Below are positions 10,445 to 43,029 of a DNA stretch of 64,000 bases, piece after piece. The DNA is taken from the NCBI GenBank assembly GCA_017475605.1, contig JAFVFD010000005.1, forward strand, positions 75,833-139,832, read 5' to 3'. Source of the DNA: Alphaproteobacteria bacterium (GTDB lineage Bacteria; Pseudomonadota; Alphaproteobacteria; Rs-D84). The notes under the pieces were generated by a model, which searched no databases, was not told where the DNA came from, and worked only from the letters and a program-made list of their open reading frames with translations. Both the position numbers and the translations under genes were made by a program. Each line of letters begins with the position of its first letter. Within the stretch, counting starts at the first letter, position 1.

Positions 10445-13400
10445 CTAGATTCCCACCCGATGTGTCAATTTCATCATAAAGATGGACTCATTACCAAATT
10501 CATCTGTATTATTTGGATTTACCCGATAAATGAAGCCCAACGCGCCGTCTGTAAACGCGCCAAAGTTATGGCGATATTCCGCATTGAATCGCAATTCCCG
10601 TTTATCCGCACTTAAATCTAGTTCCGCGATATGTGCATTCGCAATATCAAGTGCAAAATTACCATCATCGGTATCAACAATATGATAGTCGGCATACGCA
10701 TATTGCAGCGCACCATGCCGCACCGCCAATGGTTGCGCAACACTTAACCGGAAATTACCAATTTCGGCACCAATTCCAAATGCGTTTGATTCAAGTTCTG
10801 ATACCCCCAGGACAAAGTCCCCCGCCCCATCGGTTGTTGTGCGCGCAAATGTCGCACGCGCGGTAAGTGTAAAATTATCAAATGGACGAACACGCAATTC
10901 ATTATCAACATATATCGTTTCACCCGCACCCATATCAAGCAAACCATTCGTATATGCCCCCAAAACAGTATCCGTTTCGTTCACCGCACCAACGGTTGTA
11001 TCAAACCCAAAATATTTACCACGCCATGCAACATTTGCACCCGCACCACGTACCAGGCCCAACCGCGCCGGCGCATAATTTGCCGCTATTGTTGGGTCAT
11101 GTTCCAACAAAGATTCATCAGTTACCGCACCTGAAAACGCGCGCGCACCAAACGACCATTTACCGAAATTATATTCAGCATCCGAAATAACTGCATTTGA
11201 CGCAAGGTTCAAAATCGGATTGCTCATCCCTGAAAAACGCGACACCCCGTCGGTAAGATGCCGCTGATACCCCGCTGCCATATTCCAATTACCCGTTGTC
11301 CAATCTAATTTCATATTATCCAATCCGCCCATATTGTCATTATAGGCACGCGGTGATACCGCCATTGAAAAACCAAGTTTCCCCATCTGAATCCGATTTT
11401 CATCCGCATCATGCGTTTTCAATTCGCCCAACACATCGCCCATATAAAGTCCATGCCTTGAATTCGTCCCCAGTGCGAATTCATTTGTCCAAACACGTGG
11501 CAACGACAATTCACCATCAACACTGGTCAACACATCAAATGCCGATGTCCGTAATGTTGCATTACGCGCACCAAATGCCGACGACGACATAAATGCTGTA
11601 TTAGATGCCGCCCGCCAATACGCATTACCGGCATCTGACACAATATCGGTTCCATTATAATAGAAAATATTTTTCCCCGGTGTTGTTGCGCGTTCAACAT
11701 TGATTAACCCGTAACCAAATACTTCCTTGAACGCATCAAGATAATCAAGATTTCCAGCATTCACCATATACTGATATTCATTTGGCAATTCATACATACC
11801 CTGTAGATACGATTTCAAGTCATCTTTTGTAAATGTGGTACCCGATTCATTTGTTCCCAAGTACGCACCATCGGCGGTCAATGCCACCAGCGCAAATATT
11901 TGTTGATTTGTCAGATACGGAAAGGCCGACTTTACCGCCCCAAATGCACCTGCGGCACTTGCCACCGCTAATTCATCGGTAACACCCGCCGCGGCAAAGC
12001 ACCATGGGTCAATTCCGTTTGCCCCCATACCCCCAACACCACACATACGCGCCCGATAATATGTATCATCGGTTGTGTCCGGCGTATTATTTGTATTTTG
12101 CCATTGTGCCAAAATATATTTATTATTCGGCGAATAACCGGAAACAGTTGATGTTCCATTGGTCCCTGTCCCCTTTTGTCCAACGGCAACAATGGACGCA
12201 AATAAATGTTCCATATTCGCACCGTATACCAGCGGTGCCGCATTTTCAAAAGTCGCAACCCGCGCCACCCCAGAATATGCCGCATCCGTTGTTACCCCAC
12301 CGGTTGAAAACAGGACCAATGGTGAATAAGACGAACCCAGCCCACTGAAAAACTGTTTTGCTATCGCCCCCTGGGTACTGGCTGTTGAATCGGCATTATA
12401 ATATTTATTCACATATAAAGAAAATTGGTTTTGATAATCTTCTGATGTTGTTGCGGATATAGACAACAAATCGTCAATGGTCGCTGTGTCCGTCGCATAC
12501 AAAGGTGTAATCACCGATGCATTTGCTAATATGTTTGGACGCGACCGCCCCATTGTAACATCACCCGCGGTGTACAATGCCGCCCCCGCCAACAATGCCC
12601 GATAATTATAATAGTCAATAGTATTTCCGTTATTATCAACGCCTCCACCCGTTCTAAAAATTGTCATTTGTCCGTTTGGCATAAATCCCATAAAGTCGGC
12701 AGTAGACCCTGTTGTAACGGAACCCGCCACCACCTTGGCCAGCAAATTATCCATATCGGTTGCCGATGTATTGTTTATCGCGGTGCCATTACCCGATAAA
12801 TCAAACGACGCGACCAACGTCGAATCTTCCGATGTAGTATCATCGGTCAATGTTCCGGTGTCTGTGCCATAGGTTATCTTGTTATTATAATATTTGCTGG
12901 AAATCATATTGTTGGACGCGGCATTCACTTCTGTTCCGTTGTTATTAAGTGTTGTCCATGGCATCAATTTATCCGCCAATGAAGTATCATCCGCGGCATT
13001 GATACCATTTGCGGTAATTAACGCAACATTTATCGGTCGGCCCCCCAACACAGGTTCTGTTCCCAAATTATTTCCACCGATATTCAACGGTGCATCGGTT
13101 GATTTATTGCGTAATGTTGACATACCCATATATCCGCGTGCGAATGCCGAATAGCCACGCATCATAAGCAGGTAATTTTGCCCATATGTATTTGTCATTA
13201 AATTAAAGTTTTTATATAAAATACTGTCTGTATCAGATGGGCTGTATAAATCCAGCGCATTTGTATAATTATAATCTTCCGCCAATGATGCCGGGCCATC
13301 TGGCAAAGTAAATGCCGCGGTTGCATTTGTCGAACCACCGCCACCATTGTTGCCACCACCATGTGATCCAGACGAAGAAGAAGATTTATTATCGTTTCCC

Positions 13401-13825
13401 GGATCCAACCAATCGGTTAACAAAAACAGCCCCCCAACGATAACGGCGGCCCCCGCCGCCGTTAATGTTATGCTTTGGGCAGAAGATAACCCGCCGAATA
13501 ACCCACCACTGCTGCCGGTTGGTTTATTCCTGGAATTATACTGCTTAATCTGACGGTCGCACTTTGATGCATCGGCACCATACATTTGTAATATTTGCGC
13601 GGCCCGAACATCGTTATTCATTAACGCGGTACACACCAACGACAGCCCAGTTGAATCAACATAATTTACGTTTGCGCCATTGTTGATAAGTGCCTGCACC
13701 TGCTGAATATCGGCATTTTTAGCCGCAGACAACAACTGTGCCGCAACCATAAATTCATTTGTTGCACCAAACGAAACCGCCGGTATCAAGAACAATAAAA
13801 AGCCGAAAACTCGCATAAATCTCAT
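10445..13825 (-). CDS. Secreted ankyrin-repeat / subtilase-like (S8-fold, probably catalytically degenerate) protein with an autotransporter-like C-terminal beta domain
   Basis: Signal peptide MRFMRVFGFLLFLIPAVSFGA. Ankyrin repeats (AAKNADIQQVQALINNGANVNYVDSTGLSLVCTALMNNDVRAAQIL). The segment ...AGAFGAVKSAFPYLTNQQIFALVALTADGAYLG...GYGLINVERA resembles the subtilisin Ser-motif region and C-terminal GYGL(I/V)N, but the GTSMA, HGTH and DTG catalytic motifs are not recognisable. The last ~300 aa show alternating amphipathic beta-strand character. Confidence 0.55.
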   Translation of the reverse strand: MRFMRVFGFLLFLIPAVSFGATNEFMVAAQLLSAAKNADIQQVQALINNGANVNYVDSTGLSLVCTALMNNDVRAAQILQMYGADASKCDRQIKQYNSRNKPTGSSGGLFGGLSSAQSITLTAAGAAVIVGGLFLLTDWLDPGNDNKSSSSSGSHGGGNNGGGGSTNATAAFTLPDGPASLAEDYNYTNALDLYSPSDTDSILYKNFNLMTNTYGQNYLLMMRGYSAFARGYMGMSTLRNKSTDAPLNIGGNNLGTEPVLGGRPINVALITANGINAADDTSLADKLMPWTTLNNNGTEVNAASNNMISSKYYNNKITYGTDTGTLTDDTTSEDSTLVASFDLSGNGTAINNTSATDMDNLLAKVVAGSVTTGSTADFMGFMPNGQMTIFRTGGGVDNNGNTIDYYNYRALLAGAALYTAGDVTMGRSRPNILANASVITPLYATDTATIDDLLSISATTSEDYQNQFSLYVNKYYNADSTASTQGAIAKQFFSGLGSSYSPLVLFSTGGVTTDAAYSGVARVATFENAAPLVYGANMEHLFASIVAVGQKGTGTNGTSTVSGYSPNNKYILAQWQNTNNTPDTTDDTYYRARMCGVGGMGANGIDPWCFAAAGVTDELAVASAAGAFGAVKSAFPYLTNQQIFALVALTADGAYLGTNESGTTFTKDDLKSYLQGMYELPNEYQYMVNAGNLDYLDAFKEVFGYGLINVERATTPGKNIFYYNGTDIVSDAGNAYWRAASNTAFMSSSAFGARNATLRTSAFDVLTSVDGELSLPRVWTNEFALGTNSRHGLYMGDVLGELKTHDADENRIQMGKLGFSMAVSPRAYNDNMGGLDNMKLDWTTGNWNMAAGYQRHLTDGVSRFSGMSNPILNLASNAVISDAEYNFGKWSFGARAFSGAVTDESLLEHDPTIAANYAPARLGLVRGAGANVAWRGKYFGFDTTVGAVNETDTVLGAYTNGLLDMGAGETIYVDNELRVRPFDNFTLTARATFARTTTDGAGDFVLGVSELESNAFGIGAEIGNFRLSVAQPLAVRHGALQYAYADYHIVDTDDGNFALDIANAHIAELDLSADKRELRFNAEYRHNFGAFTDGALGFIYRVNPNNTDEFGNESIFMMKLTHRVGI

Positions 13826-13940: not shown

Positions 13941-14741
13941 TTAATAACATTTAGAACGAGAACCCAAAACAACGGTCGTTGTTGTACGGCACGCGTTTTG
14001 ATACAGACGTTTCTTTTTCTGTGGTTCTGTTGTGTTCACATTATTATCATGGCCGTTAACATTACCATTTGCGTTAACAACACCATTTGCATTAACAATC
14101 ACATTACCATTGTTATCGCCAGTGATAACAACTGTTTGTGTTGGTGTGTGTGCATTTGTACGAACAACAACAGTATCCGGTGTGGCAACAATTTCTGTTT
14201 TCTGTTCCGGACATGGAGTTGGTTTCACCGGTGCCGACTTCGCTGGCTGCGCTGGTTTAACAGGTGCTGGTTTTGCCGGTTTCACAGGCTGTGCTGGTTT
14301 TGCCGGTTTTGCAGGCTTTTTGGCTGGCTTGGCCGGCTTTTTAGCCTGTTTCGCTGGTTTTTCACATTTGCAGCAATCACATTTGTTTTTCGCATCCTTG
14401 CAATCACAACCTGTCTTATTACCTTGGCATGCGCAAGCCTTGGCTTCACGACAAACCGCCAAAGAATCACGCAAATCTGCTATTGTGGAATCACGTACGA
14501 CAATTGTATCGCGCAAAGCGGAATTTTCATCATTCAATTCACTAATGCGCCCATTTGCCGCTTCGACTGCGTTGCTGGCATCTGTCAATGCTGTATTGTT
14601 CTTTGAAACAAGTGTATGCCATTCCTGTGCTTCATCACGTGCAGCACGTTTATCGCTGCACTGTTTAACACCGAAAACAATAGCGATAACCGCAACCGTT
14701 CCCAGTGCGATATTTGCCCAAGTTCTTTTATCCATAGCCAT
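13941..14741 (-). CDS. Membrane-anchored coiled-coil, Cys-rich protein with (PAKPAK)n proline/lysine-rich tandem repeats
   Basis: N-terminal TM WANIALGTVAVIAIVFGV. A coiled-coil segment. Cys cluster CACQGNKTGCDCKDAKNKCDCCKCE. Then KPAKQAKKPAKPAKKPAKPAKPAQPVKPAKPAPVKPAQPAKSAPVKP, encoded by imperfect tandem DNA repeats at about 14235-14345. RBS AAGGGA. Confidence 0.5.
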   Translation of the reverse strand: MAMDKRTWANIALGTVAVIAIVFGVKQCSDKRAARDEAQEWHTLVSKNNTALTDASNAVEAANGRISELNDENSALRDTIVVRDSTIADLRDSLAVCREAKACACQGNKTGCDCKDAKNKCDCCKCEKPAKQAKKPAKPAKKPAKPAKPAQPVKPAKPAPVKPAQPAKSAPVKPTPCPEQKTEIVATPDTVVVRTNAHTPTQTVVITGDNNGNVIVNANGVVNANGNVNGHDNNVNTTEPQKKKRLYQNACRTTTTVVLGSRSKCY

Positions 14742-14773
14742 TTTTTATCCCTTTGGTTATACTTGATGACTAA

Positions 14774-14802
14774 AATATAGACAAAATATTATGTTTTGTC
14801 AA
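14774..14802 (-). promoter_or_regulatory. Putative sigma70 promoter for the 13941-14741 gene
   Basis: Minus-strand TTGACA (revcomp of 14797-14802), 17-nt spacer, TATATT (revcomp of 14774-14779). Confidence 0.45.
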
Positions 14803-14887
14803 GTATAAATTTCATTTTTATTATTTTATCTTGTTTTTCCCTTTGCGCCCCACACCGTTTTTTGATATAATTAGGCATCAGAGAGAA

Positions 14888-15748
14888 ATGATAAAAAAAC
14901 TTGCTTTTGTAATACTATCTTGTGCGCTGGTGCCTGTGGTTGGGCATTCGGCGTGTTCACGCGCGAATTTAACACGTTGTTTGGATTCTGCGTGTGCGGT
15001 TAACATATCGTCAAATCCGGCGGCACGTTGTCAATATTGTGGTACTGCGGATGCCGGCGAACCGAACGACGCGGGGTTGCGTGCCGTATCCGTTGGAACA
15101 TCTGCGAAATACAATATTTCGGCGCGCGATTTGAAAAGCGCCCCAACCGATCCCGGCGAACGCTATGTTTGGGCATCAAAAAAATGTATTTCTATTGTTG
15201 ATGGCTGTACCGCGGACGATGTGTCGGATGTGTACGATAAATTAATTGAACAATCTTGTACCGCCGCGGGAATAAGTGCACAAATGGCCGTACTATTCGA
15301 AAATGCGCGCAAGGTTAAGACAGAATCTGCATGTAAATCTGAAATAACGGCGTGTATGGTTGGCGAAGCAAAATGTACTTCTAAATACAGCGGCTGTGCC
15401 GAAGATGCCGATTTTGATAAATATTTTTCGGAATGTTCCATCGCATCTGTTGGTTGTGATGCGTATTTGTCGGACATCCGTTCAACACTTGCCACCGCAC
15501 GCGATCGCGCAATTAAAAACGCCGAGGAAACACTTTTGGCCATTGTCCAATCGTACAGGGATGCGCGTGCAAAACGTTTGGCTGCAATTACCAAATCGTG
15601 CGATGATAACTCTGCGCGCGACGCGTGTATAACATCTGTATGTAACCGCAGTATGCCGAACAAGTGCGATGCGGCATATCCATCTGAAAAATCTATGGCA
15701 ACACAGTTGTGCAAGTTTTATGACATAGCGTGTTCGACATTAAAATAA
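14888..15748 (+). CDS. Secreted cysteine-rich protein, C-x6-C module family, paralog 1
   Basis: Signal peptide MIKKLAFVILSCALVPVVGHSA. Repeated modules ACSRANLTRCLDSAC, CKSEITACMVGEAKCTSKYSGC, CSIASVGC, CDDNSARDACITSVCNRSMPNKC. The tool ORF start at 14831 precedes the signal peptide and is unlikely. Confidence 0.55.
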   Translation: MIKKLAFVILSCALVPVVGHSACSRANLTRCLDSACAVNISSNPAARCQYCGTADAGEPNDAGLRAVSVGTSAKYNISARDLKSAPTDPGERYVWASKKCISIVDGCTADDVSDVYDKLIEQSCTAAGISAQMAVLFENARKVKTESACKSEITACMVGEAKCTSKYSGCAEDADFDKYFSECSIASVGCDAYLSDIRSTLATARDRAIKNAEETLLAIVQSYRDARAKRLAAITKSCDDNSARDACITSVCNRSMPNKCDAAYPSEKSMATQLCKFYDIACSTLK

Positions 15749-15755
15749 ACGGAAT

Positions 15756-17792
15756 ATGTTGAAAATGAATACGAACAGAACCGGAATCTTTGGCAGAAAA
15801 ATTTGTAGTGTGGCCTTTATTATTTTGGCGGTCGTTGCCGATGCGTCGGCTGCAAATGTGGTCCAGCGAAATACGGTATCTTCAACAAATCGGGTTTCGG
15901 CCACACGTCCATCCGCCGCGGCATCTCGTATGCCAACAATGATGGTTAATGTTGGCGCAACATCACAAAGCACAACACCGGCAGTATCGGACACACCCGC
16001 CACGACAACAACGAAAACCACAACTACAAACACCCCGGAACCAACACCAAACATTGAAAACAAATCATCACAATTTGGTACGGGCCTTACATCTAAATCA
16101 GAAACCCAGATTGACACCGCGGCAACAAACCTGGCTGAATTGGTCCGCGCACAACGTGCTGCACTGGATGCGGCGGATGCGACCGCGGCAATAACTGCGG
16201 CGGCACAAACCGTTACAATCAACGGGGAAAACTCCTGTGATACCGCGTTGCGTGAATGTATGATTGGCAAATGTGGTTCTAATTTTGCAAAATGCGTTTC
16301 CGATACAGATACTACATTTTTCGATAAAATGGACACATGCCGTCGCACAACGAATTGTACCGGCCATGAATATCAATTGTTTTCCGTTGAAATCAAGGCC
16401 GATCGTGATTTAAACGCAATGCTGGCAAATTATAACGCGACAATCGATTGCGGTAATAATTACGATTCTTGTATTATCGCACAGTGTGGGGCTAATTATT
16501 CCAAATGTATTGGTAAAAGTGCCGGCGACACCGCAATTGCAAAATGCGAATCAATCGCGAAATCATGTATTGAACGCGATTCCGGTTTGGCAATGCGAAC
16601 AATGGGTGTATTTGGCGAACTACGCCAGGATGCCGAACGCCAGATAGCAACCGACGAACAAAAATTGTATGCCCTGCGGGATAGAATGCGCACCCTTTGT
16701 ACGCGTTTGGGTGCAATGTTTGACGAACGCAGTTTGGATTGTGTTTATACGGTTAATTTTTATGCTGGCAAGGACAACACGCTTTTCGCATCCAAAAAAT
16801 TATATGCTGGTTCAACATTTGATTGCACACAAAATTGGTTCGGTATTGATGTAACAACATACCGCGAAAACGCACTCCGCGAAACACGCGCACAAACCGC
16901 GGCATCATCTGCGATGCTGGGGTCCGGTCTGGGCCAGGCCGTTGGTGCATTCACATCGGGCGCAATTGGTCGTGCCGTTGACCGGTTCCGCGCCGACAAT
17001 GCCCTGGAAGATAAAATCAATGAATGTATGGAAACCCACAACATGACGGAATCAGAATGTCGCGCCAAGATTAGTCCATCATCTGAAAAAACGGACAAGA
17101 CGGGAAATGCCAGCGAAACATTAAAGGCCGCCAAAGCACAATTTGATGATATTAAGAACAAGTTGGGTACAGACGGTGAAGGAAGTTTTTCAACGGGCAC
17201 TGTTTCATCTGCGGCCACAGCGGCAGCCGGTGCTGCAACATCCCAAGAAGATGGTTCGACTAAAGAAGAAGTTGTTGAAGAACAACCTGAAGACGAAGAG
17301 GTTTCAATGTCCACCCCAGATAATATAGACAAACCAGTAATCGACAAGAAACAAACAGATGACGTGTATGATGTTAATTTGCCAACCTCTTTATCAACTG
17401 AACCAATAGCTATCATCAACGGAAAACTTAAGGTAAATGTTGACAATAAGTACGCAGATGCCATTAGAAACTTTGTGAAAGACGAACGCTGGAAAGGTTC
17501 TGAAAAGAAACCACAGATATATAAAAATGTCCCCAACCAAACAATAGAGATAAGTTTATATAATAAGGCCTGGACTATAAACAAAGACTTGCATGACAAA
17601 TGGTTGAAAACTACAAAAGTCGATTCAAACAATTATCCTAATGATGAAATGTTTTCAGTTTGTTCAACACTAGAAAGCCAGTATTGTAATGGTTTAGACA
17701 ACTGTGGCATAAGTTATGTCGGTCGTCATAGTGGCACAGAAGCCAACTATTACTATGGTTGCTACATCTCTGTGCCATACAGCGAACAATAA
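15756..17792 (+). CDS. Secreted cysteine-rich protein, C-x6-C module family, paralog 2, with a compositionally distinct C-terminal domain
   Basis: Signal peptide; Thr-rich linker. Perfect C-x6-C-x4-C-x6-C modules (CDTALRECMIGKCGSNFAKC and CGNNYDSCIIAQCGANYSKC), plus CESIAKSC. Acidic linker. The last ~165 aa (17290-17792) are visibly more A/T-rich. Confidence 0.6.
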   Translation: MLKMNTNRTGIFGRKICSVAFIILAVVADASAANVVQRNTVSSTNRVSATRPSAAASRMPTMMVNVGATSQSTTPAVSDTPATTTTKTTTTNTPEPTPNIENKSSQFGTGLTSKSETQIDTAATNLAELVRAQRAALDAADATAAITAAAQTVTINGENSCDTALRECMIGKCGSNFAKCVSDTDTTFFDKMDTCRRTTNCTGHEYQLFSVEIKADRDLNAMLANYNATIDCGNNYDSCIIAQCGANYSKCIGKSAGDTAIAKCESIAKSCIERDSGLAMRTMGVFGELRQDAERQIATDEQKLYALRDRMRTLCTRLGAMFDERSLDCVYTVNFYAGKDNTLFASKKLYAGSTFDCTQNWFGIDVTTYRENALRETRAQTAASSAMLGSGLGQAVGAFTSGAIGRAVDRFRADNALEDKINECMETHNMTESECRAKISPSSEKTDKTGNASETLKAAKAQFDDIKNKLGTDGEGSFSTGTVSSAATAAAGAATSQEDGSTKEEVVEEQPEDEEVSMSTPDNIDKPVIDKKQTDDVYDVNLPTSLSTEPIAIINGKLKVNVDNKYADAIRNFVKDERWKGSEKKPQIYKNVPNQTIEISLYNKAWTINKDLHDKWLKTTKVDSNNYPNDEMFSVCSTLESQYCNGLDNCGISYVGRHSGTEANYYYGCYISVPYSEQ

Positions 17793-17820: not shown

Positions 17821-20800
17821 ATGAAAAAATTATTGATTGCTTTTTTATTTATCGTATCTGTAATACCGGCGGCATTTTCCGCACAGTCTGATGTGTATTC
17901 ATGTGGTATTGCGTCATCCGCTTCTGCACCGAATATAGTTCCCGCAGACAATTGTATTCCCCAGGATATTTTACGGGACTATCGTGTTATCAAGGGAACC
18001 GTTGTCAAGGCAAAAACAGATTCCAGGGAAAAGGTCGAACTTGTTTCCATACGTTTTACCCCGAAAGATAAATCTCAATCAAAAGAATTAATGTTCATCG
18101 CCAGCCCACATTTCGCATTTTATATCAAGAAAGGTATAGATGGTGATATTTCTTTTACTGCCGATGGATATCAAACACTTATATTACACCCACGTGATTT
18201 TGATGAAACCATGGGACGTTATGTTGAAATGGTACCCCAAAGTGCAGCCCCAACCACTACAGCACATGCTGTTGAAAGTCCAACAACACCAACATCTACC
18301 CCTGAAGCAAATAAAGCTGCAACCAGCACAACGCGCACACGTGCATCTACGCGTTCAGGTTCTACGCCACCAACAAATGGCGGTTCTGCCACTACCGCAA
18401 CAGTACATAAAAAAATTAACGGCAAGATTATCGAAGGTGACACAAAATTACCCGCTATTGGCGCATACGTTACCCCACGTGGTGTCAAATCGTCCCCGTC
18501 TAATTCGGGTATAGCCGATGAAACAGGTGCTTTTCATATTGAAATGTTCCCTGCAAACACCGACGCAGAGGTGTCGTATATGGGGTACACAACAAGAATA
18601 GTTTCCGCATCACAAATGAATGATGGGATGAATATTACACTTCAGCCATCTACAGAAACTTTGGACAAGGCGGTCCTTTCCATTGTTGATTGTGGCAAAG
18701 AAAAGCGTGCAGAATTACACGCACTTACAGCCGAAGTATTAAACAACACAACGTGTATTCCAACATCTTGTGAAAATGGTTATATTTTGGAAAAACCTAA
18801 AAACATTGATGCAAAATGTACATCTTGTACAGGTCGTGTTCCCCTGGCCCGCACAGTAACAGTTGAAAACAACCAATGTGTTCCTGACAGATGCGAAACA
18901 AACCTGGTACGCGTTGGCAATCAATGCTTGGTCGATTGTGATAAATTCAAATCTAAATTAAATGCCAAGACGGTAACACGAAAGACCCCCGGGCCAACAA
19001 CTATTGCCCCAAACAATGACTATTCTTCATTTTGTAACATAGAAAGTTGTATAAACCATTCTTTCAAAAAAATTGATAATCAGTGTGTCTTACAAACAGA
19101 CAAAGAATGTGATGATGTCGCCAAAAACATTAAATATGCATCGCCAAAAGGTAAATATATATACGATCGCAAGACCGATACTCTTATCTGCATTCCGGAC
19201 TCTTGTACAGCAACGGGATATGTTGTTAATAAGACTACTGGTCAATGCGAATTAAAAGATAACAATTGCCCTGCTGAAATCTTGGAAAAGATGGATCCAA
19301 ATGCATCGGCGGGCAGTATAAAAGAACGTGACCCCATCACAGGTGTTGCCAAAACATGCGAAATTACAGGGTGTAATAATTCCATGACCCCTAATTCCAA
19401 CGGCACCAAATGCGTCAATTCGCAATGTGGCTGCGGTCAAACTTGGGATTCAACAAAAGATGAATGTGTGTCAAAAACCGAAAGAACATGCAGTGTAAAA
19501 AATGTAAAACACGCAAAGCCGTCTGGAAAATTACAATGCCAAAACACAACAAGCATGGCATTGTCTGACGCATGCGACAAGAATACTAGTTGTAAAGAAA
19601 TCTGTGCTGTTACAGAATGTGAAGACGATTACAAATTAAACCAACAAAACAATTCTTGTGATGTTCCAACCGGTGAATGCGATTTTACTGGCGACAAACA
19701 ATTCGCCAAAGACAAAGGTATTTGGAAAGAAAAATCAGGTGTGTTGGTTTGTGAACCCATCTGTAATGGCACAAACTATGAACTTGACTGGAACCCCCAA
19801 GAAAAGAAGTATAACGGTTGCAAAGTTAAATATTGTCCATGTGGTTCAATCTTGGATGACTCGACAAAGTCTTGTAAAACATGGGCCGAACTTGGTAAAT
19901 CTAACTGCGACCCGATGCCGACTGGCGCAACAGCGGCCACCCGCAGTTGTCGCGATAATTCCAGTGGTGTCGAAACCACCAACTGTGCCGACGGTACATG
20001 TACAGAATTCTGTAAGATAACCGCGTGTGATACGGCCGCCGGATATATATTAAAGGATGGCACATGTGAATCTCAGGTTGGCAAACCATGTACCGCCGAG
20101 CAATTGCCAGAAAACGCGGTGGCGGGAACACAACGCGAAAACAATGGCAAGATAGAATGTGTTATCAGCAAATGCGCCAACGGATTTGAGGTTCGCCCTG
20201 ATGAATTGTCCTGTGCACCCAAAATGGTATTAAGTCCGGAACAATACCAAGATGAAATCGCCGAACTGGCCGACAACGCACAAAAAATGCATGAACGTGA
20301 AACATCGTTGGAAAATCGTATATTGGGCGCGGCGGGAATTGGCGCAACGGGTATTGGTGGTACAATGATTGGCGGCGCATTGGCCGAACGTCGTGCGGAC
20401 GATGATGCGGAACGCGCAATGCGTGCATATCTGGAAACATTCCATTGCGATTATGGTAATGGTACGAATGTAAAGGGTGGCGAAACAAATGTCGAATTAC
20501 CGGGCGGTAACGATATGATTGGCCTTTACACCGAATACGCACAACTTGCCAATGATTTAAAGATTCGCAAGGAAGCCCTGGGCCTTCGTCCCGGCATTGA
20601 ATCCGAGGTTGTTATTGACAAGGCCGAAACAGGTTTATACGAATACAGCAATAACGGTATTACCGGTGGAACGTACGCATCTATCGCACGTGCCCTGCTG
20701 AACCCAGACGGCGAAGATGCAAAGATGTGGGCCGCGCAACGCGCCGCCACCGACAGCAAATTAAAAACAGGTGCAATTGTCGCCGGTGTTGGTACGGTGG

Positions 20801-21810
20801 GTTCCCTGGTCGGCAACATCGCAATCAATCATGGCAAGGGAAATAATGCAAAAGAGATTATAGCAAGATATGAAAAATTACGCGCACCACTTGCCGTGGC
20901 CGCTGAACATGCCAACACACCGTATACCCCGGGTGATAATTCGCTTGATTGTTCTAGATTTACCGGAACCACAGGTGTTGGTAAATCACCAAACTGCGTA
21001 TGCGCAGACCCAACAAACACAAGATTTAACTATGACCGTGGTGGTTGTGTTCCATGCGAAAGCAACAAGGTATATAATCAAAACGACGAATGTGTGTGCC
21101 CAAGTGCAACACCACGTTGGAACGATGCGACAAATCGTTGCGAGTCAGAACCAACCGTTTGTCCATTGGCAAATAAATTAAAACACGCCACAAAATGTGA
21201 ATGTGTTGAAAACGCAAGTGCGCCAGACGGCAAAAATTGCCAATGCAAAACAGACGAAGGTTTCGAAGAAAAAGACGGTCAATGCGTTCAGAAAGAAGTA
21301 CCACCAGAACACGAATCTGGATCAGAAATTGGAAAATTCTCGTTCTCGGCAGATGCCCTTTTCGCGTCAAGTCGCTGGGAAATCAAATCTGACAAGCTTA
21401 CTCAACTGCGCAGCGATTTGGCAAATGCAAAACAAACTGCGACAACCGAAAAAATTGATTTGAACGCGGACGATTATTGTGTCGTCGTCGTTGGAAAAAC
21501 CGACCGCACACAATATCCTAAAAACAGTTCTATGAACAATACAAAACTGTCTTTGTATCGCGCAAATGCCATCAAAAACGAATTAAAAACTGTATTCAAA
21601 GAATCTAATATACTTACCTATGGCATCGCAGCGAAAGACTGTCCGAAAACAAAATATCCCAGGGCAAATACCGCCGATTGCCGTCGTGTAGATGTTACTT
21701 GGTTGGCAGGATCATGCGAAGACAATAAAAATAATACAACAAATTGGATTAGCAATGTCGCAGAAGCAACAGATGCTATATCAGAATTACAGAGTTTATT
21801 AAAAAAATAA
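17821..21810 (+). CDS. Large secreted multidomain protein: CarboxypepD_reg-like domain, EGF-like Cys-rich repeats, glycine zipper, OmpA-like C-terminal domain
   Basis: Signal peptide MKKLLIAFLFIVSVIPAAFSA. Pro/Thr-rich linker. KINGKIIEGDTKLPAIGAYVTPRGVKSS...GAFHIEMFPANTDAEVSYMGYTTRIV resembles the carboxypeptidase-regulatory-like domain. Over 60 Cys in C...C..C repeats. Gly-zipper ILGAAGIGATGIGGTMIGGALA. The C-terminus FSFSADALF...VVVGKTDRTQYPKNSSMNNTKLSLYRANAIKNEL...CRRVDV fits the OmpA C-terminal domain pattern. Confidence 0.6.
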   Translation: MKKLLIAFLFIVSVIPAAFSAQSDVYSCGIASSASAPNIVPADNCIPQDILRDYRVIKGTVVKAKTDSREKVELVSIRFTPKDKSQSKELMFIASPHFAFYIKKGIDGDISFTADGYQTLILHPRDFDETMGRYVEMVPQSAAPTTTAHAVESPTTPTSTPEANKAATSTTRTRASTRSGSTPPTNGGSATTATVHKKINGKIIEGDTKLPAIGAYVTPRGVKSSPSNSGIADETGAFHIEMFPANTDAEVSYMGYTTRIVSASQMNDGMNITLQPSTETLDKAVLSIVDCGKEKRAELHALTAEVLNNTTCIPTSCENGYILEKPKNIDAKCTSCTGRVPLARTVTVENNQCVPDRCETNLVRVGNQCLVDCDKFKSKLNAKTVTRKTPGPTTIAPNNDYSSFCNIESCINHSFKKIDNQCVLQTDKECDDVAKNIKYASPKGKYIYDRKTDTLICIPDSCTATGYVVNKTTGQCELKDNNCPAEILEKMDPNASAGSIKERDPITGVAKTCEITGCNNSMTPNSNGTKCVNSQCGCGQTWDSTKDECVSKTERTCSVKNVKHAKPSGKLQCQNTTSMALSDACDKNTSCKEICAVTECEDDYKLNQQNNSCDVPTGECDFTGDKQFAKDKGIWKEKSGVLVCEPICNGTNYELDWNPQEKKYNGCKVKYCPCGSILDDSTKSCKTWAELGKSNCDPMPTGATAATRSCRDNSSGVETTNCADGTCTEFCKITACDTAAGYILKDGTCESQVGKPCTAEQLPENAVAGTQRENNGKIECVISKCANGFEVRPDELSCAPKMVLSPEQYQDEIAELADNAQKMHERETSLENRILGAAGIGATGIGGTMIGGALAERRADDDAERAMRAYLETFHCDYGNGTNVKGGETNVELPGGNDMIGLYTEYAQLANDLKIRKEALGLRPGIESEVVIDKAETGLYEYSNNGITGGTYASIARALLNPDGEDAKMWAAQRAATDSKLKTGAIVAGVGTVGSLVGNIAINHGKGNNAKEIIARYEKLRAPLAVAAEHANTPYTPGDNSLDCSRFTGTTGVGKSPNCVCADPTNTRFNYDRGGCVPCESNKVYNQNDECVCPSATPRWNDATNRCESEPTVCPLANKLKHATKCECVENASAPDGKNCQCKTDEGFEEKDGQCVQKEVPPEHESGSEIGKFSFSADALFASSRWEIKSDKLTQLRSDLANAKQTATTEKIDLNADDYCVVVVGKTDRTQYPKNSSMNNTKLSLYRANAIKNELKTVFKESNILTYGIAAKDCPKTKYPRANTADCRRVDVTWLAGSCEDNKNNTTNWISNVAEATDAISELQSLLKK

Positions 21811-21828
21811 TATGATTGTTATTTGATA

Positions 21829-21857
21829 CCCCCGCCCATTTGGGCGGGGGTATTTTA
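21829..21857. terminator. Bidirectional rho-independent terminator
   Basis: CCCCCGCCC-ATTT-GGGCGGGGG followed by TATTTTAT, between the convergent genes ending at 21810 (+) and 21855 (-). Confidence 0.6.
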
Positions 21858-22610
21858 TGGGTTGTAATAACAACTGCTTGTAAATTGAAAATTACCAATA
21901 TTATCGTGCAGTGTATAGTTCCCTGGTATATAACACTCATTTATGGCAGAGGCCCCTGCCCCTATTGTTGTTCCAACCGCTGCATCAGTGCCACTTGTTC
22001 CAGCATAAAATGTTGAAGATATCGGACATCGACTGCAAGAATTATTATTTAAATAATATCCTTGTACACACACAAAATTCGGCCCACCTGGACAACCAGC
22101 ATTATCAGGACACGCATTACACCGCGGGTCGTCCATTGAACTGGCTATTCCGTAATACCCAGATGCACATCTAAACTCTACTATTGTATTACATGTGCCA
22201 CAAATACATGTTTTTCTTTGTCTCATTTGAATGTGATACGAATTAGCCGGTGTCCAGTCTGAATCGGAACAATTTGTACAAGATGCCGAAGGGCACCCGC
22301 AGGTTTTATAAATATTCGTTGACGAATATTCACATCCATCATCTGTATAAGTTACATCCGTTAACACTTGACCTGTATTACATGATGTGCAACTTTGTAC
22401 AGGACGAAAAGCCACGCTACCACTGCCATCGTAATTTGGATTAACAATAAAGTATATTGTTTCCGATGTTTTACAATTACTGCCAGTTATTATTGTTGAA
22501 AGTACATAAGAAGAATCGGGCCTGGTTTTTGTATTTGTACATGTTTGTCCATAAGCGTTAGTAAGTGTAACAAATATTATACTAGATGTGATTAAACAGT
22601 TCCTCTTCAT
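21855..22610 (-). CDS. Secreted cysteine-rich protein with eukaryote-like furin/EGF-type Cys repeats (C..GYY..C..CP)
   Basis: Signal peptide MKRNCLITSSIIFVTLTNAYG. 30 Cys in 230 aa. Motifs CASGYYGIASSMDDPRCNACPDNAGCPGGPNFVCVQGYYLNNNSCSRCP. Confidence 0.5.
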   Translation of the reverse strand: MKRNCLITSSIIFVTLTNAYGQTCTNTKTRPDSSYVLSTIITGSNCKTSETIYFIVNPNYDGSGSVAFRPVQSCTSCNTGQVLTDVTYTDDGCEYSSTNIYKTCGCPSASCTNCSDSDWTPANSYHIQMRQRKTCICGTCNTIVEFRCASGYYGIASSMDDPRCNACPDNAGCPGGPNFVCVQGYYLNNNSCSRCPISSTFYAGTSGTDAAVGTTIGAGASAINECYIPGNYTLHDNIGNFQFTSSCYYNP

Positions 22611-30213: not shown

Positions 30214-31770
30214 TTATTCGTCGCAACCGTATTCGCCACACGTGCCATCGGAATATTCGCCAACTTCTATCGCGACAGGATTGCCTGCCGGCTCATTAGT
30301 TGTATAATGCGTTTCCTTGACTACGCGGACACGACGATTTGCCGCATTCGGTGTATTGTCTGGTGTCGGAACAGCCAAATCTTCTTCACCACTGGATACG
30401 GCGACAATCTGACTTGCCGGGATACCGTATTGAATCAGCATTTTCTGGACCGCTTCGGCACGACGACCCCCCAGGGCATAGTTGTAACTTTTTGACCCGG
30501 CGGTATCGGTATGTCCGACCACAGAAACCTTGATATTCTTGTTTGATTGTGTCGCATCGGCCAATTTTTCAATCAAATCACGATATTCAGGTTTAATAAT
30601 CGCCTTGTTGAAATCAAAACGAACTTCAAAGACTTCTTCCATGACATGCTGTTTTGGTTCCAATGGAATCTGTTGAACCTTAATCATTGTCTTTTCGCCA
30701 GCGGCCGCCTGTAATTTATCCAAACGTGCGTTAATTGCCGCCAATTCTTCACGCATAGCCATCATCATATCGATAAATTCTGCGCGGGTTACGACATCGT
30801 CATTTACGACTGGAACAACAACTGGTTCTGGGTCTGGACAATTACATGATTCCTGGACAACAGGTTCTGGTTGTGGGCATGGCTTAACCTTGCACACAGT
30901 TTTTGCGCATGTGCAGTTTGATCCGGCCTGTAAACTGTTACCATTGTTGGACATGTTTTTGCTGACTGTTTTATCACCACCATAAATGTTTTGATTAAAT
31001 ACCATTGGTTGTACAGGTACCGGGTTAATAAGGTGTTCCGGCACATTCACATTGTTAACAATAATAACACCTTCGCGGGCGCGAGACGAATTGCTCATTG
31101 CGCGCATATTGCGTGTTTCCGGGTAATATTCACCGGCACTGCGCTGAACATCATTAACTGCGATTTCTGTTTTAACTGTTTGTGTTGTCTGGGTCTGGAC
31201 AGGTGTTTTTGCGATTACCTTGCCCCCCTTGCAATCACGCAGGGCAACCAAAGCCTTTTGGAAACGGTCGCGACATTGACGCGCGGTTGCTTCTTGGCCA
31301 CTGGCGGTGGCGGACAACCAACAATCGTATTTAGCCTGAACTTCGGCCGCCAATTCAGGATGTAAATCGGATGCATCGTTTTTCAATTGTTCCATCAATT
31401 CATTGTATGCGGTATATAATTCAAACGATGTTTGTTCATCATCAACCGGCCAATTTTCCATTGTTTCCGGGAACGGCAATTCACCAGAAAATGCGGCAAC
31501 CGCCTTCTGTGCGAACAATTCGCCCATTTCAGGATAGCCTGATGTACGCGCATTGTATATAGCATACGAACGATAGTTCATCGCCAATTGATTCAAAAAG
31601 GAATCTTTATGTGGTGCAGAATACACATCCAACCGTTCAACATAATCGACAGTTGGTGTTGAAACATCATATGCGACATCGCCCGCATTATCACGCGCAC
31701 ACGCGCCCAATGCCAGTATCAACAGGCCTGTCAATATTTGTACTTTGCACTTTGAACTTTGATTTTTCAT
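30214..31770 (-). CDS. OmpA-family lipoprotein
   Basis: Lipobox LILALGAC. C-terminal FDFNKAIIKPEYRDLIEKLA...VVGHTDTAGSKSYNYALGGRRAEAVQKML...NRRVRVV is a canonical OmpA C-terminal domain. The middle carries a Cys/Pro-rich segment CTCAKTVCKVKPCPQPEPVVQESCNCPDPEP. Confidence 0.75.
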   Translation of the reverse strand: MKNQSSKCKVQILTGLLILALGACARDNAGDVAYDVSTPTVDYVERLDVYSAPHKDSFLNQLAMNYRSYAIYNARTSGYPEMGELFAQKAVAAFSGELPFPETMENWPVDDEQTSFELYTAYNELMEQLKNDASDLHPELAAEVQAKYDCWLSATASGQEATARQCRDRFQKALVALRDCKGGKVIAKTPVQTQTTQTVKTEIAVNDVQRSAGEYYPETRNMRAMSNSSRAREGVIIVNNVNVPEHLINPVPVQPMVFNQNIYGGDKTVSKNMSNNGNSLQAGSNCTCAKTVCKVKPCPQPEPVVQESCNCPDPEPVVVPVVNDDVVTRAEFIDMMMAMREELAAINARLDKLQAAAGEKTMIKVQQIPLEPKQHVMEEVFEVRFDFNKAIIKPEYRDLIEKLADATQSNKNIKVSVVGHTDTAGSKSYNYALGGRRAEAVQKMLIQYGIPASQIVAVSSGEEDLAVPTPDNTPNAANRRVRVVKETHYTTNEPAGNPVAIEVGEYSDGTCGEYGCDE

Positions 31771-42000: not shown

Positions 42001-43029
42001 TTATTTATAAGGATCTTCATATTTCTTGGCCAATTCTGCGATATTTTCCGGTGGCCAACCTGGTACTTCCATACCCAATCCCAAACCCATGGCTTCCAAT
42101 TGAGCCTTGATTTCATTCAAAGACTTGCGGCCAAAGTTTGGTGTTTTCAACATGTCTGCTTCGGTTTTCTGGACCAATTCGCCCAACCAATTGATTTTGT
42201 CGTTCTTCAAGCAGTTATTTGCACGAACAGACAATTCCAATTCATCAACATGTTTCAACAATTTCGGATCAAATGGCAACGCATCTTTTGCCTTATCATC
42301 TTCGGATGGTGCATTGATTTGTGCAGGATCTTCAAAGTTGATAAAGACAACCAGTTGGTCTGTCAAGATACGTGCGGCATATGCGATTGCATCTTCTGGT
42401 GCAACACTGCCATTTGTTTTAACTGTCAATTCCAATTTATCATAGTCTGTAGATTGACCAACACGTGTTTGTGTAACTGTGCTGGCTACATTCAAAACTG
42501 GCGAATAAATTGAATCGACCGGAATAACCCCCAATGGTAAATCGGCGGCATTTTGTGATGCAGGCACATAGCCACGTCCGGTTCCCAATGTGATTTCCAT
42601 ATCAAAATTTGCGCCCTTGTCCAAAGTGCAGATTTCGACATCTTTGTTCATAACTTCGACACCACCCGATGTTTCAATCATACCGGCGGTAACGACTGCT
42701 GGACCTTTAACTTTCAGGTATGCTTTGTGCTGGCCTTCGGTCAAGGCTTTGAAATAAACACCCTTTAAGTTAAGGATAATGTCGGTAACATCTTCGCGGC
42801 AACCTGGGACGCTGCTGAATTCATGCTGGACACCATCAATTTTAATATAAATTGGCGCACAGCCCTGAAGTGAAGACAACAATACGCGACGTAATGCCGT
42901 CCCCAGTGTTAAACCGAACCCCTTTTCCAATGGTTCGGCGACCAAAGTTGCGATATTTGAATCATGTTCATCGACCACGACATTAAGTTTTTTTGGCTTA
43001 ATAAGGGTCATCCAGTTCTTTTCAATCAT
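42001..43029 (-). CDS. rpoA: DNA-directed RNA polymerase subunit alpha
   Basis: [18 protein letters not shown]...[34 protein letters not shown]... plus the C-terminal domain ...[12 protein letters not shown]. 342 aa. Confidence 0.93.

Follow-up and report, generated by a model that had tools for sequence, protein, structure and literature searches.

A large exported envelope protein of gut Alphaproteobacteria built around a conserved double glycine-zipper module

Escherichia coli SlyB, YfgH, OsmB and YiaD are outer-membrane proteins whose 2TM glycine zipper lies in that membrane, and YiaD adds an OmpA C-domain (bioRxiv 10.64898/2025.12.22.696046). The N-terminal extension of SusC sits ahead of the TonB box and is thus periplasmic; even in SusC, it has no known function (PMC7782687). 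Elements resembling both are joined in one open reading frame within the 64,000-nucleotide stretch analyzed here (the window); the product of this frame is a large exported protein of the cell envelope, from an uncultured alphaproteobacterium of the gut (Candidatus Enterousia group). From its N terminus, this protein consists of a signal peptide, one or two CarboxypepD_reg-like (CPD) β-sandwiches, a variable disulfide-rich arm, a conserved unannotated module (MOD), a second Cys-rich block (CYS2) and an OmpA-like domain. The original prediction of an unusual domain chain stands in outline and is revised in the extent of the Cys-rich region, its EGF identity and the number of zippers. The topology and function proposed for the protein below are inferred.

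An operon conserved in Rs-D84

The target is the third gene of an operon, after two genes for Cys-rich exported proteins, with gaps of 7 nt and 28 nt, the latter between w_678 and the target.

10445..13825, minus strand: w_1126, divergent neighbor with an N-terminal ankyrin repeat, conserved beside the cluster
13941..14741, minus strand: w_266, divergent neighbor; TM helix at the N terminus, coiled coil, tail rich in Cys/PAK
14831..15748, plus strand: w_305, first operon gene, exported Cys-rich protein with 20 invariant Cys (synteny, Cys count)
15756..17792, plus strand: w_678, upstream operon gene, exported Cys-rich protein (synteny, Cys count)
17821..21810, plus strand: the target, 1329 aa plus stop codon (ORF reading of the window)

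The predicted 1329-aa frame is real: it begins with ATG, has no internal stop, and the identical protein is present on three public contigs. The true start of w_305 is probably the ATG at 14888, and the sequences most like promoters are found in the divergent gap at 14742-14830. The w_678 product, with 15 invariant Cys, contains six C-x5/6-C pairs and, C-terminally, a single glycine zipper; w_266 is weakly conserved at the same position (30-37% identity), and the neighboring genes include those for a YadA-type and another autotransporter-like protein. The order w_305, w_678, MOD protein is kept in 15 GTDB species representatives and at locus L001, and in a natural fusion (P0044, locus L043, on two contigs) a w_678-type protein is joined to MOD-CYS2-OmpA. 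The suggested link to the "C-x6-C" proteins is supported by both the conserved order and the fusion.

The family is a large set of envelope proteins specific to the Rs-D84/Candidatus Enterousia lineage, gut Alphaproteobacteria with genomes of ~0.75-1.0 Mb. The MOD profile matches at least 899 clusters at 50% identity with E<=1e-3 (695 with E<=1e-30), and every named member is either a Ca. Enterousia protein or from unclassified gut Alphaproteobacteria. The architectures that recur are CPD-MOD-CYS2-OMPA (38), MOD-CYS2-OMPA (28), CPD-MOD (16) and MOD only (13). MOD is the constant element, and both the N-arm and the CYS2-OmpA tail are optional.

Terminal domains and Cys-rich blocks

17821..17883, plus strand: Sec (SPase I) signal peptide, residues 1-21, MKKLLIAFLFIVSVIPAAFSA followed by QSD (sequence reading, hydropathy)
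17947..18237, plus strand: N-terminal domain, residues 43-139, probably a divergent CarboxypepD_reg-like β-sandwich (iterated family HMM)
18241..18414, plus strand: Thr/Ala/Ser/Pro-rich linker, residues 141-198 (composition)
18415..18675, plus strand: CarboxypepD_reg-like β-sandwich, residues 199-285 (PF13715, E 3.3e-5)
18691..20214, plus strand: Cys-rich arm, residues 291-798, 48 Cys (Cys spacing)
20947..21291, plus strand: second Cys-rich block, residues 1043-1157, 14 Cys (Cys spacing, family alignment)
21337..21726, plus strand: OmpA-like peptidoglycan-binding domain, residues 1173-1302 (HMM, family profile)

The signal peptide is of the Sec type, with a cleavage site read as AFS/AQ, and no lipobox Cys was found in it. 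The motifs on which the domain chain was first proposed are all present: KINGKIIEGDTKLPAIGAYVTPRG at 197-220, AGIGATGIGGTMIGGALA at 838-855 and, at the OmpA end, GKTDRTQYP, LSLYRANAIKNEL and CRRVDV at 1225-1291. In HMM scans, the target alone falls below the CarbopepD_reg_2 and OmpA thresholds, whereas at the family level both domains are far beyond chance. CarbopepD_reg_2 (PF13715) covers its full length (1-87 of 88) at 24.3 bits, under the gathering threshold of 32.2; PF13715 is matched by 30 of 55 relatives, several exceeding that threshold, and the profile of these 55 matches the SusC/RagA N-terminal extension (8aa4_A residues 13-122, E 1.3e-13) and also 9hfj and 6ytc. The predicted CarboxypepD_reg-like domain is confirmed at the family level and, as judged by these profile matches, is of the same kind as the SusC extension. 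Residues 43-139, which match nothing in Pfam, are probably a second, divergent β-sandwich, a tentative assignment suggested by an HMM that initially matched only the N-domains of P0009, P0010 and P0025 and upon iteration also residues 195-276.

The predicted OmpA-like C terminus with its Asp/Arg pattern is also supported. PF00691 scores 15-19 bits on the target alone (threshold 27.2) and matches 54 of 55 relatives, at best with E 1e-18; a search with the family profile finds the OmpA C-domain structures 2mqe and 4erh (E 4e-20) and YiaD 2k1s (E 1.7e-16), along with Pal, MotB, TssL and YfiB, and the family HMM matches the canonical OmpA protein of the window (E 2.5e-15). A PDB search with a poor first model returned OmpA-like domains only. 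D1228, N1240 and R1247 are invariant across the family. The proposed His-to-Lys replacement carries no meaning, as this position is Y/F in aligned enterobacterial OmpA and H or K within the target's own family. C1274 and C1287 probably form a disulfide; they lie just ahead of the final RRVxI strand, where the alignment places the Cys pair of enterobacterial OmpA C-domains.

The target contains 69 Cys, of which 66 lie outside MOD, all within blocks of even count. The arm, which spans 510 aa rather than the ~700 aa first estimated, comprises nine units, four-Cys modules of the form C-x~20-C-x4-C-x~11-C, each finishing with a C-x(3-4)-C-x(9-20)-C hairpin, and carries two CxCG..C inserts at 536-549 and 672-685. 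Its "EGF-like" label is a loose pattern analogy: the likeness lies in short disulfide hairpins of the forms C-x-x-G-[YF]-x(4-8)-[DG]-x-x-C and CxC-x-G[YF]...C, similar to the C-terminal half of EGF, but EGF follows a six-Cys pattern whereas each unit here has four Cys with C-x4-C spacing. The arm has no Pfam match, no EGF HMM matches the target even at E<=10, cEGF is matched by only three of 55 relatives, and the unit profile finds nothing significant among PDB sequences (best, a CRTAC1 EGF hairpin, E 0.12). The second block, absent from the original prediction, follows the zipper region and precedes the OmpA-like domain; it is made of CxC-x(11-15)-C hairpins, including CQCKTDEGFEEKDGQC, and was the sole confident part of the first structure model (pLDDT 67-77).

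The double-zipper module and its proposed topology

20236..20913, plus strand: MOD, conserved unannotated module, residues 806-1031 (family HMM, E 1e-102)
20320..20385, plus strand: glycine zipper 1, residues 834-855, ILGAAGIGATGIGGTMIGGALA (family alignment)
20446..20448, plus strand: invariant lone Cys876 in the motif TFxCxYG (alignments)
20767..20832, plus strand: glycine zipper 2, residues 983-1004, TGAIVAGVGTVGSLVGNIAINH (family alignment)

MOD, ~220 aa long with no match in Pfam, NCBIfam or PDB, has a central loop domain bracketed by two stalk helices, these in turn by glycine zipper 1 on the N-terminal and glycine zipper 2 on the C-terminal side, with one further helix beyond each zipper. 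An AlphaFold2 model (pLDDT 76.3, pTM only 0.45) places one zipper on each of two long helices, at 36-79 and 171-209 of the construct. The predicted glycine zipper thus exists as a segment, but it is one of two in a larger new module, and Gly-zipper family HMMs do not match the target even at E<=10. Zipper 1 is uncharged in 84% of 147 relatives, with G844 97% and G846 99% conserved; zipper 2 is uncharged in 89% and contains conserved N999 and N1003. Cys876 is invariant in alignments of 147, 87 and 55 sequences; of 12 complete module-only proteins, 10 have its equivalent as their sole Cys and only one has a lipobox-like motif. Summed over a biological-hydrophobicity scale with values reportedly those of Hessa et al. 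2005, a crude, position-independent approximation, zipper 1 scores +5.6±1.4 and zipper 2 +3.9±1.1 (n=147), compared with +1.7 for the target's own signal peptide and +1.4 for the w_266 TM helix. Strictly apolar runs extend for only ~15 residues before conserved Q849, S852, N999 and N1003, and zipper 1 is followed by an acidic flank (K+R 1.6 vs D+E 5.0). By these sequence measures the zippers are too weakly hydrophobic to act as Sec stop-transfer segments in the inner membrane, and the whole chain would be exported, a reading favored by the signal peptide, the even Cys counts of the blocks outside MOD and the position of the C1274/C1287 pair.

We posit, giving the idea an even chance, that the target acts as a scaffold that is exported in full, associates with the outer membrane and is tethered to peptidoglycan, an analog of YiaD in spite of a nonhomologous zipper. 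Following Sec export of the whole chain, MOD would fold as a long antiparallel helical hairpin whose paired zippers insert into, or oligomerize at, the outer membrane, as do the E. coli glycine-zipper lipoproteins SlyB, YfgH, OsmB and YiaD, while the OmpA-like domain would bind peptidoglycan via Asp1228 and Arg1247. Together these contacts would tie the outer membrane to the wall, as YiaD, Pal or OmpA do, and keep the Cys-rich arm, rigid and variable, within the envelope; the other Cys-rich products of the operon are probable complex partners, possibly via the lone Cys876. The original proposal that the protein tethers a Cys-rich stalk to peptidoglycan is in this sense plausible. Several observations run against a scaffold: (i) MOD lacks a glycine-zipper HMM match, and its zippers are ~125 residues apart rather than joined by a tight turn; (ii) the target is not a lipoprotein, unlike all E. 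coli analogs; (iii) in a hairpin the two arms share a side, which would leave the highly variable N-arm in the periplasm and fits poorly with its adhesin-like variability; and (iv) nine or more modules may make the arm longer than the periplasm is wide.

The zippers could instead span the cytoplasmic membrane, as in a MotB/TssL/TagL-like protein with the 125-aa Cys876 loop in the cytoplasm and both arms in the periplasm. Two uncharged ~20-residue segments and a predicted hairpin that keeps the N and C arms together would suit this arrangement, as would the best NCBIfam match, to the TssL OmpA domain TIGR03350 (E 1e-7), and many OmpA-like domains, e.g., those of MotB, PomB and TagL, are anchored in the inner membrane. 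We nonetheless consider it unlikely: the insertion scores are strongly unfavorable, and the loop-side flank is acidic, with a higher K+R total on the supposedly periplasmic side, contrary to the positive-inside rule. The TIGR03350 match covers the OmpA part only, at 31.9 bits, far under the 139.8-bit cutoff. In the P0044 fusion, three zippers precede CYS2-OmpA; if all of them crossed the membrane, the Cys-rich and OmpA domains would be cytoplasmic.

The variability of the N-arm raises another alternative, that of a surface adhesin or variable antigen whose CPD and Cys-rich portions lie outside, with MOD as a new α-helical, probably oligomeric outer-membrane anchor/translocator and the OmpA-like domain in the periplasm. 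Among positional orthologs of 511-1181 aa, MOD is 45-70% identical, whereas the N-arm cannot be aligned and differs in its number of modules; a contig end cuts the gene at 18 of 40 genomic loci, as is typical of variable or multicopy surface genes. The autotransporter-like neighbors would fit a surface role, as would the thought that reduced-genome bacteria of this group rely on partners (PMC12306168). Yet Pfam and NCBIfam scans found no β-barrel, T9SS, T5SS or other known translocation domain, the even number of crossings in the predicted hairpin leaves both arms on the same side, and module-only and N-arm-less members are so common that MOD does not exist solely to display the arm. Surface display appears improbable, and a secreted or contact-dependent α-helical pore-forming toxin/effector with MOD as its membrane-inserting element is highly improbable.

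Relation to known systems

One close counterpart of the target is E. coli YiaD (NF053611, PDB 2k1s), an outer-membrane lipoprotein that likewise combines glycine-zipper helices with a C-terminal OmpA-like domain and presumably shares its role in outer-membrane association and wall tethering. The target differs in its SPase I signal without a lipobox, in zippers without a Gly-zipper HMM match, between which sits a ~125-aa conserved insert with an invariant Cys, and in an additional ~800-aa N-terminal arm and Cys-rich block; NF053611 matches only its OmpA part (13.5 bits vs a 175-bit cutoff). Module-only members (signal peptide plus MOD, ~250 aa) parallel the small "glycine zipper 2TM" outer-membrane lipoproteins of the SlyB/YfgH/OsmB and Rickettsia 17-kDa antigen type in their uncharged (G/A/S)xxxG helices, exported through Sec, but have no sequence or HMM relationship to them, are not lipoproteins, and possess a much larger loop domain with coiled-coil helices on both flanks.

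The β-sandwich at 199-285 is homologous to the SusC/RagA N-terminal extension (PF13715), but in place of the TonB box, plug and barrel that follow it there, it heads a Cys-rich arm. The C-terminal domain is homologous to those of OmpA, Pal, MotB and TssL/TagL (PF00691), with which it shares the TD...NxxLSxxRA motif; it is a divergent copy, under the Pfam threshold, and its anchor is neither a β-barrel, nor a lipid, nor a classical TM helix. By joining known β-sandwich and peptidoglycan-binding domains via a conserved, previously unannotated double glycine-zipper module, these proteins constitute a new protein family rather than a new kind of biology.

Layout of the predicted exported protein

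As originally described, the protein is encoded by an ORF (17821..21810, plus strand) that starts with ATG and runs for 1329 codons with no internal stops. At 42-45% GC, the ORF does not stand out in the window, and thus nothing suggests a foreign island. The N terminus is a classical Sec signal peptide (MKKLLIAFLFIVSVIPAAFSA, followed by QSD) that lacks a lipobox, and the cleavage site (AFS/AQ) carries no Cys, leaving the protein without a lipoprotein signal.

Layout of the protein encoded at 17821..21810 (+), in residues
1-21: signal peptide
43-139: N-terminal domain
141-198: Thr/Ala/Ser/Pro linker
199-285: CarboxypepD_reg-like domain
291-798: Cys-rich arm, 48 Cys
806-1031: mostly helical module (MOD) with uncharged Gly-rich segments at 834-855 and 983-1004 and a single Cys, Cys876
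1043-1157: second Cys-rich block (CYS2), 14 Cys
1173-1302: OmpA-like domain, 4 Cys
1303-1329: short helical tail

The original prediction had recognized one of the two glycine zippers and overlooked the other, together with the second Cys-rich block; its estimate of about 700 aa for the Cys-rich arm was too long, the measured length being 510 aa.

Judged from the single sequence, the two recognizable domains fall short of their HMM thresholds, the very outcome that the original prediction had named as refuting it, but the relatives restore both assignments. CarbopepD_reg_2 (PF13715) aligns end to end (1-87 of 88, E = 3.3e-5) at 24.3 bits versus a gathering threshold of 32.2. This model is matched by 30/55 relatives and CarboxypepD_reg (PF13620) by 28/55, with relatives over the threshold at 54.0, 52.7, and 41.6 bits; the N-terminal part of the family profile retrieves the SusC/RagA N-terminal extension from the PDB (8aa4_A, residues 13-122) at 1.3e-13, in support of the predicted β-sandwich. 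The OmpA model (PF00691, gathering threshold 27.2) scores 15.2 bits on the whole protein (E = 0.027) and 19.1 bits on the isolated segment (E = 0.0017). Scanned individually, 54 of the 55 relatives match it at E ≤ 1e-3 (best E = 1e-18), some above the threshold (e.g., 47.7 and 49.1 bits). Among PDB sequences, the 55-sequence family profile matches the OmpA C-domains 2mqe and 4erh (E = 4e-20), YiaD (2k1s, 1.7e-16), TagL/TssL, MotB/PomB, Pal, and YfiB, and the family OmpA HMM matches the canonical OmpA protein of the window (30214..31770, minus strand) at E = 2.5e-15. Residues D1228, N1240, and R1247 are invariant in the 55 sequences and align with the TD/RA positions of 2mqe and 4erh; the Asp (TD) and Arg (LSxxRA) conserved in the OmpA family make the diaminopimelate contacts. 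The C1274/C1287 pair, just ahead of the last strand, occupies the Cys-pair position of the aligned enterobacterial OmpA C-domains. A first AlphaFold2 model, built on a 2-sequence alignment (pLDDT 40.7) and usable for the CYS2 block only, has a low-confidence OmpA domain (pLDDT 35-50) whose top 50 Foldseek matches in the PDB are all OmpA-like (E 0.015-0.24, probability up to 0.98). In NCBIfam, the best match is the TssL OmpA domain (TIGR03350, E = 1e-7, 31.9 bits versus a cut-off of 139.8), MotB and DotU models appear at E > 0.02 only, and the marginal match to the YiaD family NF053611 (13.5 bits versus 175) covers the OmpA part only. Because relatives, profile matches, and invariant residues agree, we consider both domain assignments sound; the protein's own OmpA domain is a divergent copy. 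The expectation of an OmpA-like C terminus with its Asp and Arg retained therefore holds at the family level. The remark that a conserved His had been replaced by Lys is without weight, as the position is Y/F in aligned OmpA sequences and H/K within the family.

The canonical OmpA-family protein (518 aa, PF00691 E = 3e-19), whose N-terminal region of ~380 aa is unannotated, may be the organism's conventional tether between outer membrane and peptidoglycan.

The Cys-rich arm is composed of nine units, in each of which a single Cys is followed, 16-32 residues on, by a closing C-x(3-4)-C-x(9-20)-C hairpin, plus two CxCG...C inserts. The resulting four-Cys unit, C-x(16-32)-C-x4-C-x(9-14)-C, occurs in 279 copies in 152 family proteins, with the consensus CxxxxxxNATxGxxxxxxxxxxCxIxxCxxGYxxxxDxxxC. 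EGF-like domains follow a pattern of six Cys (C-x-C...C; pairing 1-3, 2-4, 5-6) in ~40 aa, and the four-Cys units do not conform to it (PF00008, PF07645, PF12662). No EGF HMM in Pfam matches residues 290-800 or 1040-1160 at E ≤ 10, and isolated segments (Cys-rich arm, CYS2, MOD, and N-terminal domain) retrieve nothing meaningful from Pfam. A profile of the unit finds nothing significant among PDB sequences, the best match being the terminal hairpin of the CRTAC1 EGF-like domain (E = 0.12). Of the 55 relatives, three match cEGF and five match CPL1-like; nine relatives scanned individually to locate the cEGF matches have no such match. "EGF-like," the term used in the original prediction, describes the small CxxG[YF]...C hairpins fairly but does not amount to a family assignment.

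A two-zipper module as the family core

A word-indexed search with the full protein returned one homolog, P0001 (39% identity over 595-1300), because low-complexity words filled the 8000-candidate list. In contrast, a profile of the C-terminal half, searched exhaustively, matches 899 clusters (50% identity) at E ≤ 1e-3, 695 of them at E ≤ 1e-30. A scan of one genome per species yields 40 loci, all from gut metagenomes and all titled Candidatus Enterousia, uncultured Alphaproteobacteria, or "uncultured Rickettsiales." Candidatus Enterousia/Rs-D84 are widespread uncultured gut bacteria; Enterousia, of the order Rs-D84, are fermentative, non-flagellated, and peptidoglycan-making, with genomes of 0.75-1.0 Mb (PMC12306168). 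Each ~0.9-Mb genome holds at least 2-4 paralogous copies by a pattern-limited count.

At 18 of the 40 loci (among L002-L041), the MOD-family gene ends at a contig end, and several assemblies hold 2-4 paralogs; these cuts suggest that assemblies break at a gene family that is present in several copies or varies between strains.

Among 152 family proteins (the protein studied here, P0001, and 150 listed representatives), local family HMMs delineate four recurring architectures: CPD-MOD-CYS2-OMPA, where CPD is the CarboxypepD_reg-like domain (38 proteins), MOD-CYS2-OMPA (28), CPD-MOD (16), and MOD alone (13). MOD is the sole constant element, with 45-70% identity among 147 sequences and invariant positions that include E827, M867, C876, K917, L920, G925, E927, Y940, S954, and A958. 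In a MOD-only profile search that matched 142 proteins, none of the 120 matches listed is annotated by Pfam across the module, and such names as occur read "hypothetical protein." Cys876 is the only mature Cys in 10 of 12 complete module-only proteins, one of the 12 having a lipobox-like motif.

The first zipper follows a small-xxx-small run, G839-T843-G847-G851-A855, and the second has similar patterns; the zipper glycines are conserved, and the segments are free of charge in 84-89% of sequences. The zippers are not two helices joined by a short turn, as ~125 conserved residues (856-982) lie between them. AlphaFold2, run on residues 795-1040 with an 87-sequence alignment (pLDDT 76.3, pTM 0.45), predicts long helices on either side of this loop.

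Predicted secondary structure of MOD (AlphaFold2, construct numbering)
12-33: helix
36-79: 44-residue helix, its N-terminal half being zipper 1
Loop domain: small β-hairpin and short helices
171-209: 39-residue helix, its C-terminal half being zipper 2
216-237: final helix

The glycine zipper foreseen in the original prediction is thus a GxxxG-type uncharged helix, but Gly-zipper families (PF05433, PF13488, PF13436, PF13441) have no Pfam match on MOD at E ≤ 10 and match 0/55 relatives, and the zipper belongs to a larger new module. MOD is an unannotated module of ~220 aa with two glycine zippers, and it defines at least 899 clusters at 50% identity. The β-sandwich and OmpA-like ends are ordinary; what is new is MOD as the constant core of a multi-paralog family, embedded in a conserved three-gene Cys-rich operon, with named members only in Rs-D84-type gut Alphaproteobacteria. 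The module merits a domain-family definition, which would annotate hundreds of "hypothetical proteins."

The Cys-rich operon and its surroundings

The gene is the third of a putative operon whose first two genes encode Cys-rich exported proteins, here called w_305 and w_678.

The operon and its divergent neighbors
10445-13825 (-): w_1126, 1126 aa, N-terminal ankyrin repeat, 49-59% identity across species
13941-14741 (-): w_266, transmembrane helix and coiled coil with a CxC/PAK-rich tail, conserved divergently beside the operon
14831..15748 (+): w_305
15756..17792 (+): w_678
17821..21810 (+): the MOD protein

The intergenic gaps are 7 nt (w_305 to w_678) and 28 nt (w_678 to the MOD gene). Promoter-like sites score best in the divergent gap ahead of w_305, although the promoter/terminator scan as a whole does not rise above shuffled expectation. 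The order of all five genes is preserved in L001 and 15 different species-representative assemblies, across which w_305 and w_678 show 51-62% identity; two further loci, cut by the contig start, keep w_678 alone, and at L017 and L020 the positional orthologs lack the CYS2-OmpA tail. In P0044 (L043:1986-4805, 939 aa), a w_678-like part (residues 13-431, with its own glycine zipper) is fused to MOD-CYS2-OmpA (455-936); the fusion sits in the same operon slot, behind a w_305-like gene, and is found on two contigs. Operon conservation and this Rosetta-stone fusion support the proposal that the protein forms one system with w_305 and w_678, the "C-x6-C" proteins of the original prediction. For the divergent w_266 and w_1126, the evidence, a neighborhood conserved among small syntenic genomes, is weaker.

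The Cys skeletons of w_305 and w_678 are strictly conserved and consist mostly of C-x6-C pairs; neither protein has a Pfam match, and the w_678 of this genome is extended behind its glycine zipper by a variable stretch of ~250 aa. Invariant Cys number 20 in the w_305 family, 15 in the w_678 family (an odd count), and one in MOD. That w_678 and Cys876 share an intermolecular disulfide is an attractive speculation; the mature Cys count of the P0044 fusion is odd, and since its parity does not close cleanly, we do not rely on such a bond. Homology between these components found no support in profile-profile comparisons, which were not significant for MOD and w_678 (E = 0.025, probability 2%), MOD and w_305, or w_305 and w_678 (E = 0.0055, probability 6.6%).

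Several other features of the window were recorded.

Other features of the window
363-6827 (-): 2154-aa protein with the YadA-like membrane anchor of a trimeric autotransporter and a marginal match to the Chlamydia PMP repeat
21855-22610 (-): 251-aa exported Cys-rich protein, convergent to the MOD gene; L016 has a weak homolog (31% identity, E = 9e-12) close to a MOD paralog
23070-28265 (-): 1731-aa protein with a signal peptide, long Gly/Thr/Asn-rich repeats, and an autotransporter-barrel-like C terminus (...YRF), with no Pfam or NCBIfam match at E ≤ 1; homologs adjoin enolase, near module-only MOD paralogs in L021, L026, and L041
43686-47507 (-): low-GC segment (35-38% versus ~43%) with genes for an alpha/beta-hydrolase-like protein, a type I R-M specificity subunit (Methylase_S), and an N6 DNA methylase

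The last segment lies between rpoA (42001-43029) and secY (48612-49931), in the ribosomal-protein cluster, and is therefore probably an inserted island. Although it covers the str/S10/spc/alpha region of ribosomal-protein genes (EF-G, EF-Tu, L2, SecY, and RpoA), the 64-kb window yielded no tRNA gene and no Rfam family at gathering score.

Proposed placement in the envelope

By default, the entire chain would be exported. We posit, giving this reading about an even chance, that the protein is an outer-membrane-associated, peptidoglycan-tethered scaffold in which the zipper hairpin keeps both arms in the periplasm. In SusC, the CarboxypepD_reg-like domain lies ahead of the TonB box (PMC7782687), so that a periplasmic location suits it, and exported outer-membrane glycine-zipper helices have a precedent in SlyB, YfgH, OsmB, and YiaD of E. 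coli (bioRxiv 10.64898/2025.12.22.696046).

Display of the N-terminal arm at the cell surface, which we regard as unlikely, would accord with an arm that is unalignable between positional orthologs of 511-1181 aa and with a gene cut by contig ends in 18/40 loci; both traits are more typical of surface antigens, make the arm the chief difficulty for the periplasmic scaffold, and keep this alternative alive. Comparably doubtful is an inner-membrane protein that crosses the bilayer twice, at the zippers; hydrophobicity, charge distribution, and a natural fusion speak against two ordinary passes. When the biological hydrophobicity scale, with values reportedly those of Hessa et al. (2005), is simply summed over the best 19-mer, the zippers score +5.6±1.4 (zipper 1) and +3.9±1.1 (zipper 2; n=147), a weak hydrophobicity for membrane passes, and the same sum gives +1.7 for the signal peptide and +1.4 for the w_266 transmembrane helix. 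Strictly apolar runs extend for only ~15 residues before conserved Q849, S852, N999, and N1003; an acidic flank follows zipper 1, and K+R content is higher on the would-be periplasmic side. P0044 has three zippers, which, if all were passes, would place its Cys-rich and OmpA domains in the cytoplasm. Nor does the protein fit the MotB/TssL type of inner-membrane-anchored OmpA-like proteins: the protein has a cleavable signal peptide in place of a hydrophobic N-terminal transmembrane anchor with a cytoplasmic N terminus, and the hydrophobicity of the zippers is unfavorable.

Improbable, too, is a bolder reading in which MOD is a new class of α-helical outer-membrane anchor whose oligomeric paired zippers span the membrane and either display the conserved 125-aa loop on the cell or give the variable Cys-rich arm access to the surface, while Cys876 and the odd Cys of w_678 would have MOD nucleate a disulfide-cross-linked, peptidoglycan-anchored lattice. 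If true, these reduced-genome gut Alphaproteobacteria (Rs-D84) would have in this lattice their main structure at the envelope and host interface, similar in function to the cysteine-rich outer-membrane complex of chlamydiae.

The family is large, multi-paralogous, and unannotated, and its module has no Pfam model or structural relative, making it a prime candidate for envelope or interface machinery. The family would also extend the emerging theme of the glycine-zipper outer-membrane stabilizer (SlyB, YfgH, YiaD) past lipoproteins and Gammaproteobacteria. Like the E. coli zipper set of SlyB, YfgH, OsmB, and YiaD, the Enterousia family has module-only and module-plus-OmpA members, and YiaD, in which glycine-zipper helices are combined with an OmpA C-domain (bioRxiv 10.64898/2025.12.22.696046), would be the functional analog of the "glycine zipper plus OmpA-like" combination described here.
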